This document shows positions 1,509 to 10,742 of a DNA stretch of 12,982 nucleotides, one piece after another. Within the stretch, counting starts at the first letter, position 1. Each line of letters opens with the position of its first letter. The notes beneath the pieces are model-generated. The model had not been told where the DNA came from, made no database searches, and saw only the letters and a program-made list of their open reading frames with translations. This DNA comes from Promethearchaeota archaeon (GTDB taxonomy: Archaea; Asgardarchaeota; Hermodarchaeia; Hermodarchaeales; Hermodarchaeaceae), in NCBI GenBank assembly GCA_048939625.1, contig JBHLPH010000036.1:1-12982 (forward strand). Reading direction: 5' to 3'. The translations under genes were made by a program, and so were the position numbers.

Positions 1509-1964
1509 CACACTCCAATTGCTATTCTCGACTTTCGATACGGTGAATTAAATAGGTCTAGGGTTTCGAAGAAAAAACAGGTCGAGACGCATTATCTAAG
1601 TGAATAGAAGGCTAAGATCCTTTTTTTGACGAAATAGTATCATGAAATTACTGAAAAGACGGTTTTTAGCCCCTCTCCAAATAGAGAAGTCTGAACCCTT
1701 TCGTCAAAAAGAAAGAAACATGTACTATTTTTTTATCTTTGAACTAATTTCGAAAGAGAAAGCTTCTTTGATACTTAAATCTCTGATAAATTCCGTCCTC
1801 GTCAGTCTGTTGTTAGAAGTTTTGAATTAGATTTTCACGACATTTCGATTGAAAGAGGAGACGGAATCTGCCTTGTGGCTAACGCCACCCTCAATCAGCT
1901 TCTTCGATGAGCTTTTCACATATCGCGGACTCGGTGACAACAACCATCGACTTGCCTATGTGGT

Positions 1965-2849: not shown

Positions 2850-2863
2850 ATGGAGTGAGAAAC

Positions 2864-3244
2864 ATGGAAGGAAAAAAGGAAAGAATACCTGATGGCGTTC
2901 AGATTGTTGTCGATGTCTACTCTGGAAGACCTAATCCCGTGCTGAATTGCTCGGAGTCTGACATGGAAGAAATAAGAGAGCGTTTAAAGGATCTAAAGCC
3001 AGCAAAGCCAAACGAGCCTGTCCGTCTTGGATATCGGGGTTTTCTTATATTGAATACGGGACAAATCAAGGGAATTCCTGCACAAATGCGTGTATATGAT
3101 GGCGTTCTAGCAATTCTGACGGAAAAGGGAAAATTTCAGCATCATGCAGACACGAATCAACTTGAAAAATGGCTCATTCATCAGACACTCGAACTAAGTA
3201 AGAAACACAAACTTGGATTGGAGCAGATTCTTCCTAAGAAATAG
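2864..3244 (+). CDS. Conserved hypothetical protein (DVYSGRPNP ... LGYRGF motifs), probable partner of the upstream hydrolase
   Basis: ORF 14 nt after the upstream stop; GGAGTGA RBS before ATG 2864 (track start is GTG 2855); followed by a terminator-like hairpin. Confidence 0.8.
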   Translation: MEGKKERIPDGVQIVVDVYSGRPNPVLNCSESDMEEIRERLKDLKPAKPNEPVRLGYRGFLILNTGQIKGIPAQMRVYDGVLAILTEKGKFQHHADTNQLEKWLIHQTLELSKKHKLGLEQILPKK

Positions 3245-3276: not shown

Positions 3277-3314
3277 AGGGTGGTTGCTATCAAGCAACAC
3301 CCTACACTCTTTTT
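3277..3314 (+). terminator. Hairpin plus T-tract after the two-gene unit
   Basis: AGGGTGGTTGCT-atca-AGCAACACCCT (11-bp stem, one bulge) followed by ACACTCTTTTT. Confidence 0.55.
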
Positions 3315-3530
3315 ATTCAATCAACCATTTTCCAAATGCTTTTCTCATTGGAGCCAGTACAATGAGGGTAAAGGTCAAAAAGAATCAATGTAAGATGTAG
3401 GTTTGACATTGTAAGAAGATGTAATGTAAGAAGAATCCCACGGCTCCTACTTCAGCATCTGGTTTACCTTCACAGAAATCACGCCAACTGGAAACCAAGT
3501 CACCCGCAAAGGCTGGACCCAACAGAAGCT

Positions 3531-3564
3531 GATTTTCCCCCAGTTCACTATCACGGGGAAAGTC
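3531..3564 (-). terminator. Stem-loop 25 nt downstream of porB (terminator or stability element)
   Basis: GATTTTCCCC (3531-3540) and GGGGAAAGTC (3555-3564) form a 10-bp inverted repeat with one mismatch. Confidence 0.35.
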
Positions 3565-3589
3565 GAATGGCGAAAGTAAGCTGAATTGC

Positions 3590-4570
3590 CTACATCTTAG
3601 CAAGCCGTTGAATAAACTCCCAATCCTCATCAACGAGATTCTGGAAATCCTTGAGCATCGCCTCTTGACGTGTCGGACGAAAGAGATGCCGGAACCGACC
3701 TTGGGGTTCCAACCATTCCTCAATCGGCTTCTTCTTCGACGGATCCTTTACATACCGCAAACTCGGTGATGACATGGTATATTCTCGAGTCTCACCATCG
3801 TACTCCCATAAGGGATTGAAACAAGTTTCTACCGCGAGTTTCGCCATTTTCATCCCCAGTTCCTCTGGATACCGCCAGTTCCGATGACAGGGGGCTAACA
3901 CAACAATTACCGCGGGACCCTGCTTCTCCATTCCCTTCCGCACTTTCATCATAAAGTCACGCCAATGATACACGGACGCTGTCGCACAATACGCTGGATC
4001 ATGCGCAGCATACACTAACGCTATGGGTTTCTTCCAGATGGGTTTTCCAGGAACAGCTTTTCCAACTTGGCTGGTCGTCGTCCACGCATATTTGGGGGTT
4101 GCACCAGAGCGTTGAATCCCAGTGTTCTGGTAGGCTTGGTTGTCGTAGATGATGTAGAGGAAGTTGTGGCGGCGTTCGATGGCGCCGCTGGCGGCTTGGA
4201 CGCCGATGTCGAATCCGCTGCCGTCGCCACTGAAGACGAGGAGATCAGGGATGTCGTCTTCGAGGCCTTGGCGTTTGCGGGCTTTGTAGGCGGCTTCGAT
4301 GCCGCTGGCGTTGGCGGGGGCGTTTTCGAAGAGGGAGTGCATCCAGGGGACGCGCCAAGCGGTGTAGGGGTAGATGGTGGAGGCGACTTCGAGGCAGCCG
4401 GTGGCTTGGCTGACGATGGTGTTGTGGGGTCGGGGGAGGGCGTGCATGGCCATGCGGGCCATAGAGCCGGCGGGGCAGCCGGCGCAGAGGCGTTGGCCAC
4501 TGGTGAAGAGTTCTTGTTGCTCAGCAATGTCTTTGAGGCGGGGTCGCCATTGGGGGGTTTCTTGGGTCAT
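3590..4570 (-). CDS. porB: Pyruvate/2-oxoacid:ferredoxin oxidoreductase beta subunit (TPP-binding)
   Basis: LCAGC, ATGCLEV, TPP motif GDG..DIG..YDNQAYQNTG, APC; last gene of a gamma-delta-alpha-beta operon. Confidence 0.95.
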   Translation of the reverse strand: MTQETPQWRPRLKDIAEQQELFTSGQRLCAGCPAGSMARMAMHALPRPHNTIVSQATGCLEVASTIYPYTAWRVPWMHSLFENAPANASGIEAAYKARKRQGLEDDIPDLLVFSGDGSGFDIGVQAASGAIERRHNFLYIIYDNQAYQNTGIQRSGATPKYAWTTTSQVGKAVPGKPIWKKPIALVYAAHDPAYCATASVYHWRDFMMKVRKGMEKQGPAVIVVLAPCHRNWRYPEELGMKMAKLAVETCFNPLWEYDGETREYTMSSPSLRYVKDPSKKKPIEEWLEPQGRFRHLFRPTRQEAMLKDFQNLVDEDWEFIQRLAKM

Positions 4571-4588
4571 GTTTCTTTTTCCTCCGGG

Positions 4589-5815
4589 TTATTTTCTCAC
4601 GGTGATGTATTTGATGGGATTACGTGGGACTTTACCCGTGTCCTTGATTTTGAGGAGTTCTTTGTAGATGGCGTTGAAGTGGTCGGGGGTTACGTCACGT
4701 CCGCCGAGTCCGCCGTAGTAGCCAAGGATGGTAGGGCGGGTGTCATGGTCGTAAAGAGCACTGCGCACCTCATTGAAGAGGGGACCACCGAGGCTACCGG
4801 TGGTATGGGTTCGCTCAAAGATGCCTAAGACAGGGACATCAGCGAGGAGTTTGGCAAGTTTTTTGTCGGGGAATGGGCGGAAAGTGCGGAGTTTGAGGAG
4901 ACCGACCTTCTTGCCTTGGGCGCGGAGTTGTCGGGCGACGAACCGTGCGGTGCCGGCTGAGCTGCCACTGGTAAGGATGACAGCGTCGGCGTCGTTAACT
5001 TTGAAGGGTTGGAGGTAGCCGTCGCCATATTTACGTCCTGTGAGTTGAGCCCATTCGTTGTTGATTTGGGTGATGACGGGGCGGGCTTTTTCCATGGCTT
5101 GGCTGTGTTGGAATTTGGATTCCATGTAATAGTCAAAAAGCTGGAGGGGTCCGATGGTGATGGGTGTTGTAGGATCGAGTTTGAGCGGGACTTGTTTACC
5201 GTCGATGGTGAGCATCATGGGTTGGCGGCGTCCGACGAATTTGTGGGCATCAGCTTCGTTGAGGAGGTAGACGTTTTCGAGGGTGTGCGTGAGGACGAAG
5301 CCGTCAAGCATGGTCATGACGGGGAGTTGGACATCGGGGTGTTCACCAATGCGGAAGGCTTGGAGGGTGGCGTCATAGGCTTCTTGTGAGTTTTCACAGT
5401 AGATCATGATCCAACCGGTGTCGCGTTGAGCGAGGGAGACGGTTTGGTCACCATGAATGTTGATGGGTCCGCTGGGTGAGCGGTCGGCGACGGCCATGAC
5501 GATGGGTTGGCGGATGCTGGAGGTGAGGAAGATGACTTCGTGCATGAGTTCAATGCCATTTGCGGCGCTGGCGGTAAAGGTGCGAGCCCCTGCGGCTGAA
5601 GCGCCAAGGCAAGCGCTGAGAGCACTGTGCTCAGATTCGACACGAACGAATTCAGTTTCAACTTCACCATTCGCGACAAATTCAGCGAATTTCTCTACAA
5701 TAATCGTTTGTGGGGTGATAGGGTATGCGGCGCAGACGTCAACGAGAGCATGTTTGGCTGCATAGGCGACTGCTTCGTCACCATTGATTCCCATGAGTTT
5801 TTGTTTAACAGGCAT
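4589..5815 (-). CDS. porA: Pyruvate/2-oxoacid:ferredoxin oxidoreductase alpha subunit
   Basis: GDEAVAYA, AYPITPQT, VESEHSA, RDTGWI, DGFVLTHT, RTFRPFP, GGLGGRDV. Start is ATG 5815 or GTG 5824 (the latter overlaps the porD stop). Confidence 0.95.
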   Translation of the reverse strand: MPVKQKLMGINGDEAVAYAAKHALVDVCAAYPITPQTIIVEKFAEFVANGEVETEFVRVESEHSALSACLGASAAGARTFTASAANGIELMHEVIFLTSSIRQPIVMAVADRSPSGPINIHGDQTVSLAQRDTGWIMIYCENSQEAYDATLQAFRIGEHPDVQLPVMTMLDGFVLTHTLENVYLLNEADAHKFVGRRQPMMLTIDGKQVPLKLDPTTPITIGPLQLFDYYMESKFQHSQAMEKARPVITQINNEWAQLTGRKYGDGYLQPFKVNDADAVILTSGSSAGTARFVARQLRAQGKKVGLLKLRTFRPFPDKKLAKLLADVPVLGIFERTHTTGSLGGPLFNEVRSALYDHDTRPTILGYYGGLGGRDVTPDHFNAIYKELLKIKDTGKVPRNPIKYITVRK

Positions 5816-5820
5816 GTGTC

Positions 5821-6093
5821 TCACTCATCTTTCATTTCGATGCATTTGACTGGGCATTCTTCGGCGCAAATGCCACAACCTTTGCAGTAGTTTAGGTCAA
5901 AGTGGATGTCTTTGCCATTCCAGCTGATTGCTGCATCGGGGCAGAAAATCCAGCAGGTGAGGCAGCGTGTGCATTTTTCTTCGTCACGGACTGGTCGTTT
6001 GCTACGCCAGTCTCCGGTTTTGTAATTGGTAGCGGGTTTCCAACACACTCCTGCGGCAGGGATGTCTTTTGATCCAGGTTGTTTTTCAGGCAT
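5821..6093 (-). CDS. porD: 2-oxoacid:ferredoxin oxidoreductase delta subunit, 2x[4Fe-4S]
   Basis: KTGDWRSKRP, CTRCLTCWIFCP and CKGCGICAEECP. ATG 6093 overlaps the porG end by 8 nt. Confidence 0.95.
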   Translation of the reverse strand: MPEKQPGSKDIPAAGVCWKPATNYKTGDWRSKRPVRDEEKCTRCLTCWIFCPDAAISWNGKDIHFDLNYCKGCGICAEECPVKCIEMKDE

Positions 6094-6655
6094 GCTTCTG
6101 CACCTCATTATACGCACGTTGGATGACGGTCACGTTTCGCTCACCAATACGGTCACCAAATTGCTCATTGACCTCTTTGAATAAGCTATCCAGTTTAACT
6201 AAACTGGTAGCACGAATTAACGCTCCTAACATGGCAGTGTTAGCAATGGGTCGTCCAATTATTTCGCGGGCGAGATCCGTTGCAGCAAGGGTCCAAACTT
6301 CACCTTTGAAACCCAGTTTTTTTGCAAGGGTCTTGGCATCTTCTCGAGTATTGACAATGAGTTTGGTCTTAGTATTAGTGCCCGCGACAATAGTGTCGGG
6401 CACTTGGGCAAGAAGTGTTGGATCAATGACCACGACATAGTCGGGTTCATACACTTTGCTGTGCAATTCGATTTCTTCGTTACTGATTCGAGCAAAGGCT
6501 TCAACGGGAGCCCCACTCCGTTCCGGTCCAAAAAAGGGGAAGGATTGTGCGTGTTTGCCTTCCATGATGGCGGCACGGGCTAGGAGGATTGACGCAGTCC
6601 ATGCTCCTTGGCCTCCTCGACCATGAATTCGAAGGTCAATAATTCGTTCCGTCAT
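6086..6655 (-). CDS. porG: 2-oxoacid:ferredoxin oxidoreductase gamma subunit
   Basis: RIHGRGGQG, FPFFGPERSGAPV, PDYVVVIDPTL, NTAMLGA. ATG 6655 is preceded by AGGTG (track start is GTG 6667). Confidence 0.95.
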   Translation of the reverse strand: MTERIIDLRIHGRGGQGAWTASILLARAAIMEGKHAQSFPFFGPERSGAPVEAFARISNEEIELHSKVYEPDYVVVIDPTLLAQVPDTIVAGTNTKTKLIVNTREDAKTLAKKLGFKGEVWTLAATDLAREIIGRPIANTAMLGALIRATSLVKLDSLFKEVNEQFGDRIGERNVTVIQRAYNEVQKHA

Positions 6656-6928
6656 GAGTGTAAACACCTGGGGTGATTTTATGAGCGAAATTCGCTTCGA
6701 TGGGGAGCTTCAGGTCTTTTATGCTTTGCTCATCTTGAGGAAAATCCAGTTACGACGATTCAGGCTAAAAGAATACGTCCAATATCAGGAAATGAGAAGC
6801 TTATCAGTCCATTCGAATACCGAAATATTTAGAAGCTTCTAGGCGTTTGTAGAGGCTGTCTAATTGAATAAAGCTTCGAATAAAGGGTGACGAGCCGCGT
6901 TTTACTTGGTAGCATTGGGTGATAGAGT

Positions 6929-9419: not shown

Positions 9420-9974
9420 ATGTCATCACGAACGGGACGCATCCGAAGCTTGGTACGATTGGTATCTCGACTGCGTCGCTCGGGAAGAGTAGCCCTGCTT
9501 ATTGATGGCCCTAATGTTTTGCGTCGCGAATTCGATGTCCGATTGGATGACTTGAAGAGCCAAATCAAAGAGTTTGGAAAAATTGGTGTCGCTAAGGTTT
9601 ATTTGAATGAACGAGCGAGTACCAAATTGCTAGAAGCAATATCGAATAGCGGATTTACACCAGTTGTTACCACCTCCGATGTTCACTTACACATGGCCAT
9701 TGAATCGATGGACTTGGTTTTAGGTGATGCAACTAAACTTCTAGTAATATTTAGCCGTCATGCCAGAACAGCACCTATTCTTCGCCGAGCCCGAGAACAT
9801 GGTTTAGAAACACTGGCAATTGGATTTGAACCCGGCTTTAGTGTCGCTGTCCAAAATGCAGCAGATAACGTGCTGCGTATTGACCGACCATTGGACAATC
9901 AAATTCAGATCATCAAAGGGAAAAAGAAGAAAGAGAAGAAAGCAGACGACGATGAAGACTGGGACATAGACTGA
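9420..9974 (+). CDS. NYN domain protein (LabA/DUF88, TIGR00288-like archaeal family), degenerate active site
   Basis: VALLIDGPNVLRREF, AKVYLN..AS.KLLEAI.N.GF.P and IGFEPGFSVAVQNAAD match the archaeal TIGR00288-type family as recalled. Confidence 0.88.
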   Translation: MSSRTGRIRSLVRLVSRLRRSGRVALLIDGPNVLRREFDVRLDDLKSQIKEFGKIGVAKVYLNERASTKLLEAISNSGFTPVVTTSDVHLHMAIESMDLVLGDATKLLVIFSRHARTAPILRRAREHGLETLAIGFEPGFSVAVQNAADNVLRIDRPLDNQIQIIKGKKKKEKKADDDEDWDID

Positions 9975-10031: not shown

Positions 10032-10742
10032 TTATTCGAGTAAACTACGAATCTCTTCGTTGGTTAATGGAGTGAAGACCTGTTTTTCCGTGTCTACAAT
10101 GGAAATTTCCATGGCTTCTTCATCGAGTTTCTCTTCGACGACTTGTCGAAGGGTATCGATACAGAGTTTAACTGCAGCAGGCATCAACTTGATGGAGGGT
10201 TTATAGTGCTTTGCCAAATATTCCCGAGCTGCTTCAGAATTATAACCGATCGCAGTAGCCCGCCAGCTCCAATAAGAACCTGAAGGATCAGTTGTGAAAA
10301 TCTGCGGACCTTGCGAATCGACACCGGCAATCAACAATGAAACACCAAAGGGTCGAATGCCGCCGACTTGTGTGTAGTTTTGTTTCAGGTCACAGACTTT
10401 CTTGGTGAGAACTTCCACATCAATGGGCTCACCATATGTGATTTGATTGATTTGGCTTTGAACACGGGCAAAATCTACTAGAACCCGAGCATCGGCATGT
10501 AGTCCAGCGATGGCACAGCCAATGTGTTTATCGACAACGTAGATTTTTTGGATTTGCTCTAAATCCATAAGAGGGGAGGTGGCTTCTTTGTGAACACCAA
10601 TTACCGCACCATTTGCGGCTTTCACACCAATTGCTGTTTTGCCACGCCGTACTGCCTCTAACGCATACTCAACTTGGTATAATCGACCTTCCGGACTAAA
10701 AATGGTGATCGCACGGTCATAGGCTAGACTTCTTTCCATCAT
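10032..10742 (-). CDS. psmA: 20S proteasome alpha subunit
   Basis: YDRAITIFSPEGRLYQVEYA N-terminal signature, GLHADARVL, YTQVGGIRPFGVSLLIAG, TDPSG. Confidence 0.97.
   Translation of the reverse strand: MMERSLAYDRAITIFSPEGRLYQVEYALEAVRRGKTAIGVKAANGAVIGVHKEATSPLMDLEQIQKIYVVDKHIGCAIAGLHADARVLVDFARVQSQINQITYGEPIDVEVLTKKVCDLKQNYTQVGGIRPFGVSLLIAGVDSQGPQIFTTDPSGSYWSWRATAIGYNSEAAREYLAKHYKPSIKLMPAAVKLCIDTLRQVVEEKLDEEAMEISIVDTEKQVFTPLTNEEIRSLLE

Follow-up and report, generated by a model that had tools for sequence, protein, structure and literature searches.

The window analysed here, the entire 12,982-bp contig C52 of the metagenome-assembled genome (MAG) G000 (Promethearchaeota archaeon, Hermodarchaeaceae; 2.31 Mb, 83 contigs, 44.6% GC), carries porB, the gene for the beta subunit of a pyruvate/2-oxoacid:ferredoxin oxidoreductase, in which synonymous codon usage switches abruptly from C-ending to G/T-ending codons. 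The switch lies two codons from the position at which inteins interrupt PorB homologues in other organisms. It is probably the scar of recurrent homing-endonuclease breaks, and of their repair, at an empty intein site, left by a process that is specific to this lineage, strand-asymmetric, and GC raising. Both genes that bear the pattern, porB and porA, are members of a porGDAB operon. The features concerned are as follows.

3590..4570, (-) strand: porB, beta (thiamine pyrophosphate [TPP]-binding) subunit; intact open reading frame (ORF) of 326 aa; Pfam TPP_enzyme_C, E 1.4e-14.
4589..5824, (-) strand: porA, alpha subunit, which bears the gradient seen in its codon table; Pfam POR_N and PFOR_II.
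4124..5587, (-) strand: C-domain (porB codons 1-149 and porA codons ~80-411); coding strand C/A-rich and G/T-poor at free positions, with the bias growing towards the site.
3300..4123, (-) strand: G-domain (porB codons 150-326 and ~290 nt of 3' spacer); coding strand G/T-rich, hence + strand C/A-rich towards the site.
4109..4138, (-) strand: putative empty intein-homing site, with its junction between codon 149 (AAC, 4126-4124) and codon 150 (ACT, 4123-4121); motif YDNQAYQN/TGIQ (slash, junction).

An earlier note, made from the letters of the window alone, had drawn attention to the switch, and its description was confirmed by codon counts. Within porB codons 1-147, GAG17 is the single G-ending codon besides those for Met and Trp, and third positions counted in 30-codon bins are 50-83% C, with 0-3 G per bin. 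Four-fold sites of codons 1-149 are C.91, A.04, T.05, and G.00 (n=74); two-fold pyrimidine-ending codons end in C at.92, and Gln, Lys, and Glu codons end in A at.90. Past the switch, G and T endings are abundant, as the note had said (four-fold sites of codons 150-326: G.38, T.24, C.21, and A.17; third positions from codon 151 onwards: G 23-50% and T 20-37%). The best change point, located with a two-segment likelihood model, falls after codon 147 (between window positions 4130 and 4129; support, codons 146-150; delta lnL 69). The gradual build-up of C endings along porA that the note had reported is also present, four-fold C rising from.31 in porA codons 1-79 to.69 in porA codons 80-411 and.91 in porB codons 1-149. 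On the + strand, the polarity is the one described (C/A-rich to the left and G/T-rich to the right, the type of an origin skew minimum): GC skew is -0.09 to -0.20 over 3301-4050 (-0.20 at 3751-4050) and +0.25 to +0.41 over 4051-5550. Around the flip, GC climbs to 0.53-0.67 (0.53-0.60 at the flip itself) against 0.446 for the genome, and third-position GC (GC3) is ~.8 in the C-domain and ~.5 in the G-domain against.41. Such composition is rare: of 10,563 100-codon windows of the genome, third-position C minus third-position G (C3-G3) exceeds 0.5 in 0.4% and falls below -0.3 in 0.27%.

The note had placed the junction in the conserved TPP motif. This was correct and became the key clue, as an intein site lies in the same motif. 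An intein splicing domain (PF14890) lies within the TPP domain of more than 100 PorB homologues (650-694 aa), among them proteins of Heimdallarchaeaceae, Woesearchaeota, and Omnitrophota. LAGLIDADG_3 (PF14528) is annotated on most of these intein-bearing matches and is weak or faint on the three contigs that were examined. In alignment A1, the intein follows "...AY(M)N" and precedes "TGIQRS"; in the window PorB this is the N149-T150 junction (window positions 4124 and 4123), two codons from the change point and within its support interval of 146-150. In the motif YDNxAYxN/TGIQ, residues N149, T150, and G151 are invariant in A1, and the first C-extein residue is Thr, one of the three (Cys, Ser, or Thr) expected there. 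By its position, the endonuclease domain of its homologues, and its motif, the window porB is thus a predicted empty, or intein-free, homing site. Met at position -2 of the motif is retained by outgroups and by intein-bearing alleles and is replaced by Gln in one genus of the family and by Ser in the second; the replacement might alter endonuclease recognition.

Other genes tie the flip to intein sites as well. A 2-oxoacid:ferredoxin oxidoreductase (OFOR) beta paralogue in the same genome (C36, 11169-12080; 38% identical) flips within ~4 codons of the same motif, here YNNEAYGN/TGMQ, and the gene that follows it has a third-position G (G3) of.40 and a third-position C (C3) of.05. Just upstream of inteins in this genome's MCM, PolD (DP2), and PolB genes, C3-G3 rises to +0.6 to +0.7, with the change point, where the C-rich peak ends, no more than 6 codons from the N-junction. 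Little skew surrounds two further inteins, the second of MCM and that of a radical-SAM gene. The MCM gene with its two inteins is split across contigs (C12, 77674-80397; C65, 148-2577).

The PolD DP2 intein (aa 892-1432; G000:C36:17608-22683) is polymorphic: G000 and at least seven genus mates have it, and G011, G003, and the sister genus lack it. Alleles with and without it were compared in relatives (G011:C18, G003:C153, G017:C67, and G018:C36 and C93), and three empty alleles have Ala, not Cys, as first C-extein residue. In 10/10 alleles profiled (five occupied and five empty), the exteins flip between WHAAKRRN and (C/A)DGDED, at the junction between adjacent 20-codon bins. C3-G3 is +0.31 to +0.67 in the 100 codons upstream, reaching +0.9 in the last 60, and -0.02 to -0.52 in the 100 codons downstream, reaching -0.8 in the first 40; the weakest downstream skew (-0.02) is that of G000's own occupied allele. 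These occupied and empty alleles directly parallel the empty porB site.

The note had taken the flip for a local feature. It is local, spanning 1.5-2 kb, but it is not unique, being one of ~26 flips of the same polarity in the genome. A whole-genome skew scan (450-bp arms; skew jump of at least 0.5) found that the + strand passes from C-rich to G-rich at 26 flips and from G-rich to C-rich at 3. The polarity of such a C-to-G flip is invariant under reverse complement; each strand is C-rich towards the flip and G-rich past it. Averaged over the 26 sites, the skew is strongest at third codon positions and fades over 1.5-2 kb, and it is also found at codon positions 1 and 2 (mean, -0.15 before and +0.11 after the flip) and in spacers (-0.22 and +0.29). 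Genes transcribed away from a flip have G3 of.27-.32, and those transcribed towards it have C3 of ~.40; at each of the 18 largest intragenic change points, the 5' part of the gene is C3-rich and the 3' part G3-rich or neutral. The pattern is thus independent of gene strand and codon role. The note's inference of a site-specific, strand-asymmetric process is supported to this extent: the flip is anchored at a site, graded, seated at the DNA level, and distinct from codon adaptation, being found in both gene orientations, at codon positions 1 and 2, and in spacers, with complementary codons on its two sides in porB. No shared sequence motif was visible by eye at the 26 refined flip points. One intergenic flip (C81, 31176) has near-homopolymer arms, "...CCCTCCCCCCTCCTGGACCCTCCCCCCACCC" before and "TTTAGGTGGGGATTGGTGATGG..." after it, a bias in noncoding DNA. 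Several contigs end within skew islands or close to them (C14, in the FttA gene; the H+-pyrophosphatase [H+-PPase] gene of G018, split at aa 432-468; and the PolD gene of G003, split near the site), and allele polymorphism at skew sites may be breaking the assemblies.

The skew is restricted to this lineage. Lineages were compared by third-position windows, since raw counts of GC-skew flips mislead in low-GC genomes. Islands in samples from two genus mates match those of G000 in strength (C3-G3 of.72 and.78 per 100 codons), and a 200-kb sample of another family reaches.31 at most. The H+-PPase flip, in the GPIxDN region, is kept in five genus mates, as the porB flip is kept in 12 further species. 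At control synonymous sites (porG and porA codons 1-79), identity between species is.41-.52 against.27 by chance, so most of these control sites have turned over, yet four-fold C in the first part of porB stays at.91. Polarised changes in the two domains number 5 and 7 on the window branch and 19 and 17 on its sister, the latter mostly C>T in the C-domain and G>A in the G-domain; with so few changes and the bias of parsimony, this spectrum is informative only on the asymmetry between branches. The bias is maintained in the window lineage and relaxed in others.

We infer that breaks and their repair are the cause. LAGLIDADG endonucleases of PorB inteins, which are widespread in other archaea and bacteria, would target the DNA of the TPP motif at the N149-T150 junction. 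Repeated double-strand breaks there would be followed by homologous repair with biased, strand-specific steps, which may be heteroduplex correction, damage to newly made single strands, or both, along with GC-biased conversion. In this Hermodarchaeota family, each strand read 5' to 3' would so become C/A-rich and GC-enriched towards the site and G/T-rich after it, decaying over ~1.5 kb; the length of repair tracts would give the gradient and the break point the sharp flip.

Which chemical step might give the bias can be narrowed by polarity. Resection from 5' to 3' would leave the strands that run towards the break as 3' overhangs, and these are the C/A-rich strands here. Cytosine deamination of resected overhangs was rejected: it would deplete C on them, and the observed polarity is the opposite. 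In one possible route, new strands displaced in synthesis-dependent annealing or break-induced replication would be damaged; they run away from the break and would turn G/T-rich, a polarity that fits. In another, heteroduplex formed by the invading strand would be corrected asymmetrically, so that this strand keeps C/A alleles and loses G/T alleles. The endonuclease EndoMS/NucS cuts G/T, G/G, and T/T mismatches well and C/C, A/C, and A/A mismatches hardly at all (PMC4838380). NucS is present in G000 and in 17/18 family genomes. It is not supported as a sufficient cause, since G021, from another Asgard family, has NucS and an intein-bearing porB and no skew. The raised GC3 suggests an added component of GC-biased conversion.

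Several results weigh against this explanation. Neither route alone, with any candidate chemistry, predicts the large excess of C over A at four-fold sites without added GC bias. A search of the 18 other family genomes gave no porB with an intein, and among 5.8 billion proteins no such PorB is closer than ~62% identity, so ongoing breaks are not accounted for by a resident endonuclease. In Heimdallarchaeaceae and in another lineage, porB genes with inteins have flat third-position profiles and no flank skew, and the intein-bearing porB of G021 has no such skew either; homing alone is therefore insufficient, and a lineage-specific factor is needed. Most of the other ~20 flips are not tied to any endonuclease target. 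At the H+-PPase flip, no intein-sized insert was seen in 200 Asgard genomes. In RadA, the flip follows codon 255 (support, 254-266), and the nearest known intein site (between residues 270 and 271; 13 long homologues) is 15 codons downstream and outside the support interval, near but not exact.

As to the lineage-specific factor, we suggest tentatively that Hermodarchaeota may own a distinctive pathway of break repair or heteroduplex correction that makes every recurrent break site a kilobase-scale C-to-G mirror. Candidates would be a mismatch endonuclease blind to C/A-type mismatches, or a gap-filling polymerase or deaminating exposure acting on new strands.

Ordinary explanations of the switch were weighed against the repair scar. 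Codon adaptation of highly expressed genes was rejected, C3 being.17-.27 in EF-2, both thermosome genes, and the ribosomal-protein cluster, near the genome mean of.23. The uniform bias within a gene that adaptation predicts is absent from porB, whose halves use complementary codons; with complementary preferences on the two sides within one protein, translation cannot explain the flip. The note had offered, as alternatives to a mutational process, a recombination junction with discordant halves and an assembly chimera. A chimera, or an old junction left in the TPP motif by recombination or horizontal transfer, is scarcely credible as the source of the pattern, even though the junction sits in the most conserved motif and MAG contamination is 6%. 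The same switch is found in 12 further species assemblies from two genera of the Hermodarchaeota family (change points at codons 143-162; porB orthologues in relatives are 77-96% identical), and the junction is continuous in these 12 and in a second contig of the bin, C79, which rejects a chimera. Half-gene trees (porA with porB codons 1-147 versus porB from codon 148 to the end) are concordant except for one species, L042, whose porB tail is basal; this one discordance speaks for recombination, and the agreement otherwise excludes a recent junction in this lineage. Nor can the codon usage of a donor yield complementary biases on both sides or a polarity excess of 26:3, and conservation of the flip effectively refutes the reading. 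Contig C79 represents another strain or species that was binned together with this one and differs downstream of porB: its positions 1-711 align with window 4303-3603, starting inside porB (aa 90) and remaining 94% identical to the stop codon, after which unrelated genes follow.

Anchors other than intein endonucleases would also act on DNA. A local replication initiation zone, or a start of break-induced replication, could give an origin-type skew, and the note had named initiation or helicase loading as possible anchors. The polarity is that of an origin skew minimum, and break-primed synthesis would mimic an origin. This is nevertheless very unlikely, with at least 26 sites in 2.3 Mb, each ~1.5-2 kb wide, a flip that is GC-rich and has no AT-rich unwinding element, repeats of only 12-19 nt (chance level) and none of the origin recognition box type, no Orc1/Cdc6 domain among the window ORFs, and flips that coincide with intein junctions, PolD included. 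Archaeal origins are few per genome, usually lie next to orc1/cdc6, and have repeats of the recognition box type on either side of an AT-rich unwinding element. Some other site-anchored process at highly conserved motifs, such as a programmed nick, a hotspot set by another factor, or free-standing endonucleases, might have inteins merely sharing its sites. It would accommodate the many flips for which no intein is known and which sit either in a conserved motif or close to the 3' end of a gene (H+-PPase, SecY, a small GTPase, and an SPFH protein), those that adjoin free-standing genes with helix-turn-helix (HTH) and weak LAGLIDADG-like matches, and the absence of porB inteins throughout the family. 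We consider it unlikely, since the tight match at three intein junctions (at most 2 codons in porB, ~4 in its paralogue, and a bin junction in PolD) is hard to obtain without an endonuclease anchor. Recoding driven by selection, which would keep homing-site flanks C/A-only on one strand for unstructured single strands or mRNA, for escape from homing, or for translation tuning, is likewise improbable. Synonymous C at 91%, with very few changes on the window branch, does look like selection, and Met at -2 has been replaced in two genera by Gln or Ser. Against it stand the complementary codon sets within one gene, the effects on spacers and on codon positions 1 and 2, the unbiased highly expressed genes, and the implausible strength of per-site synonymous selection required over 1.5 kb; occupied PolD alleles have the same flanks, so the skew does not block homing.

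Among the genes that adjoin flips, two encode paralogous ~535-aa proteins (C38, 255-1862; C61, 17240-18838), which share 40% identity, match HTH domains, and have a LAGLIDADG-like match below threshold. Both genes are C3-rich as far as codon ~338, and each is convergent with another C3-rich gene at a flip. By sequence, these paralogues may be candidate free-standing homing endonucleases.

Downstream of porB, the window holds traces of an older history.

1786..1937, weakly back to 2133, (-) strand: decayed relic of an older porB 3' end (aa ~268-319, weakly to aa 210), with stops and a frameshift.
2319-2849 and 2855-3244, (+) strand: two passenger ORFs between porB and the relic; no Pfam family; not nuclease-like.

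The relic lies ~1.65 kb downstream of the live stop codon and was picked up when orthologues served as tblastn queries (E 4e-8 to 1e-7); its translation gives "W*PQGRFRLLFQSKCRENLIQNF*QQTDED" and "SPSPRYVKSSSKK" (asterisks, stops). Look-alikes of the passenger ORFs are LamG-like jelly-roll proteins with virus-dominated clusters and clusters named "putative phage protein." No endonuclease was found among the window genes downstream of porB, and no nuclease family or fold was found for the passenger ORFs. Nucleotide homology to all relatives and to C79 stops at the porB stop codon, and the upstream side is syntenic. In relatives, the downstream neighbours of porB are GNAT, TldD/PmbA, CorA, and flavodoxin genes, and no porB tail relics were found in the 3 kb downstream of their porB. 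The relic tail and the end of homology at the stop codon indicate that the porB 3' end has been replaced at least once in this lineage. Together with the passenger genes, we count them as support for past mobile-element activity at the locus.

The remainder of the operon is ordinary.

5821..6667, (-) strand: porD (5821-6117; Pfam Fer4) and porG (6086-6667; Pfam POR); composition ordinary, synteny kept in all relatives.

Antisense ORFs on the (+) strand across porA and porB (4067-4828, 4773-5018, 5009-5389, and 5457-5765) have no family support, and the simplest account of the long ones is that C-ending codon bias leaves antisense frames poor in stops. At the left end of the window, an ORF of more than 503 aa (3-1511, (-) strand), truncated by the contig end, has an N terminus matching helix-hairpin-helix/Pol-lambda-fingers domains, with no assignment for the remainder. 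Next to the porB relic, at 2013-2147 on the (+) strand, is an inverted 45-aa fragment similar to residues 18-62 of this ORF (47% identity; E 1e-6). Further genes encode an NYN-domain protein (9420-9974, (+) strand) and a proteasome alpha subunit with unbiased codons (10032-10742, (-) strand). A second proteasome-alpha gene (C34, 62406-63254) is, unlike the window copy, among the most C3-rich genes of the genome. No Rfam families were found in the window.

If the repair-scar explanation is right, homing elements leave a durable strand-specific scar that is readable from sequence alone, and empty or long-vacated homing sites and break hotspots could be found without seeing the element. A strong, local, nonadaptive force would then act on codon usage and protein composition in Asgard archaea and would mislead codon-bias estimates of expression, detection of horizontal transfer, skew-based origin prediction, and gene calling (antisense ORFs in C-domains). 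It would also give access to the strand asymmetry with which archaea repair breaks and correct mismatches, something difficult to approach where no culture exists. Were the distinctive pathway real, the 26 or more flips would chart homing sites and recombination hotspots, both present and extinct, in the genome of an archaeon closely related to eukaryotes, and the force would be strong enough to rewrite synonymous sites and some amino acids of core genes.

Among known systems, GC-biased gene conversion at hotspots, of the Duret and Galtier type, is strand-symmetric and yields no C-to-G mirror. It shares with the porB flip a local rise in GC3, a selection-like force, a fixed site, and effects at nonsynonymous positions; the porB flip differs in being such a strand-asymmetric mirror. 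Replication-linked strand asymmetry is familiar from bacterial origins and from the H and L strands of vertebrate mitochondria. The dichotomy of C/A versus G/T at synonymous sites and the origin-like polarity are the same, whereas the flips described here are local (1.5-2 kb), number dozens per genome, are centred on intein junctions, and have far more C than A at four-fold sites. The tail-replacing homing elements of yeasts (WHO type) resemble the porB locus in a decayed older 3' end of the target lying downstream with passenger genes between. They differ in that porB has no adjacent endonuclease gene and a single relic, not a stack, and ordinary genes lie downstream of porB in relatives.

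In yeast, single-switch strand-coordinated mutation clusters change bias at a break, with tracts of about a kilobase on each side from single-stranded repair intermediates (Sakofsky et al. 2019, PMC6786661); resection with cytosine deamination mutates C to the left and G to the right of the break on the top strand (PMC6786661). The break-centred geometry is the same. The steady-state polarity is the opposite, the strand running towards the break being C-rich in porB, and the porB pattern has become fixed in evolution, with synonymous sites saturated. Its polarity is compatible with an exposure of the newly made strands or with a heteroduplex correction that is asymmetric.

Closest is intein homing with co-conversion of flanks, as in the haloarchaeal MCM and PolB inteins (PMC10643990). 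Shared with the loci reported here are the kind of site (a conserved motif, with Thr at +1 of the C-extein), a LAGLIDADG endonuclease (carried, for porB, by the homologues' inteins), repair of the break from a homologous copy, kilobase-scale flank tracts, and presence/absence polymorphism, seen here for the PolD intein within the family. The difference is that no family member searched has an intein at the porB site, whose footprint is extreme nonetheless, and intein-bearing porB elsewhere has no footprint. A compositional or strand-skew footprint of homing sites was not found described in the literature searched. Intein homing with co-conversion, break-centred strand-switch clusters, GC-biased conversion, and origin-type skews are each known, and what that literature did not yield is the present combination: a kilobase-scale, mirror-image recoding, maintained in evolution and centred on homing sites, empty ones included, whose link to these sites is well supported and whose mechanism we infer.

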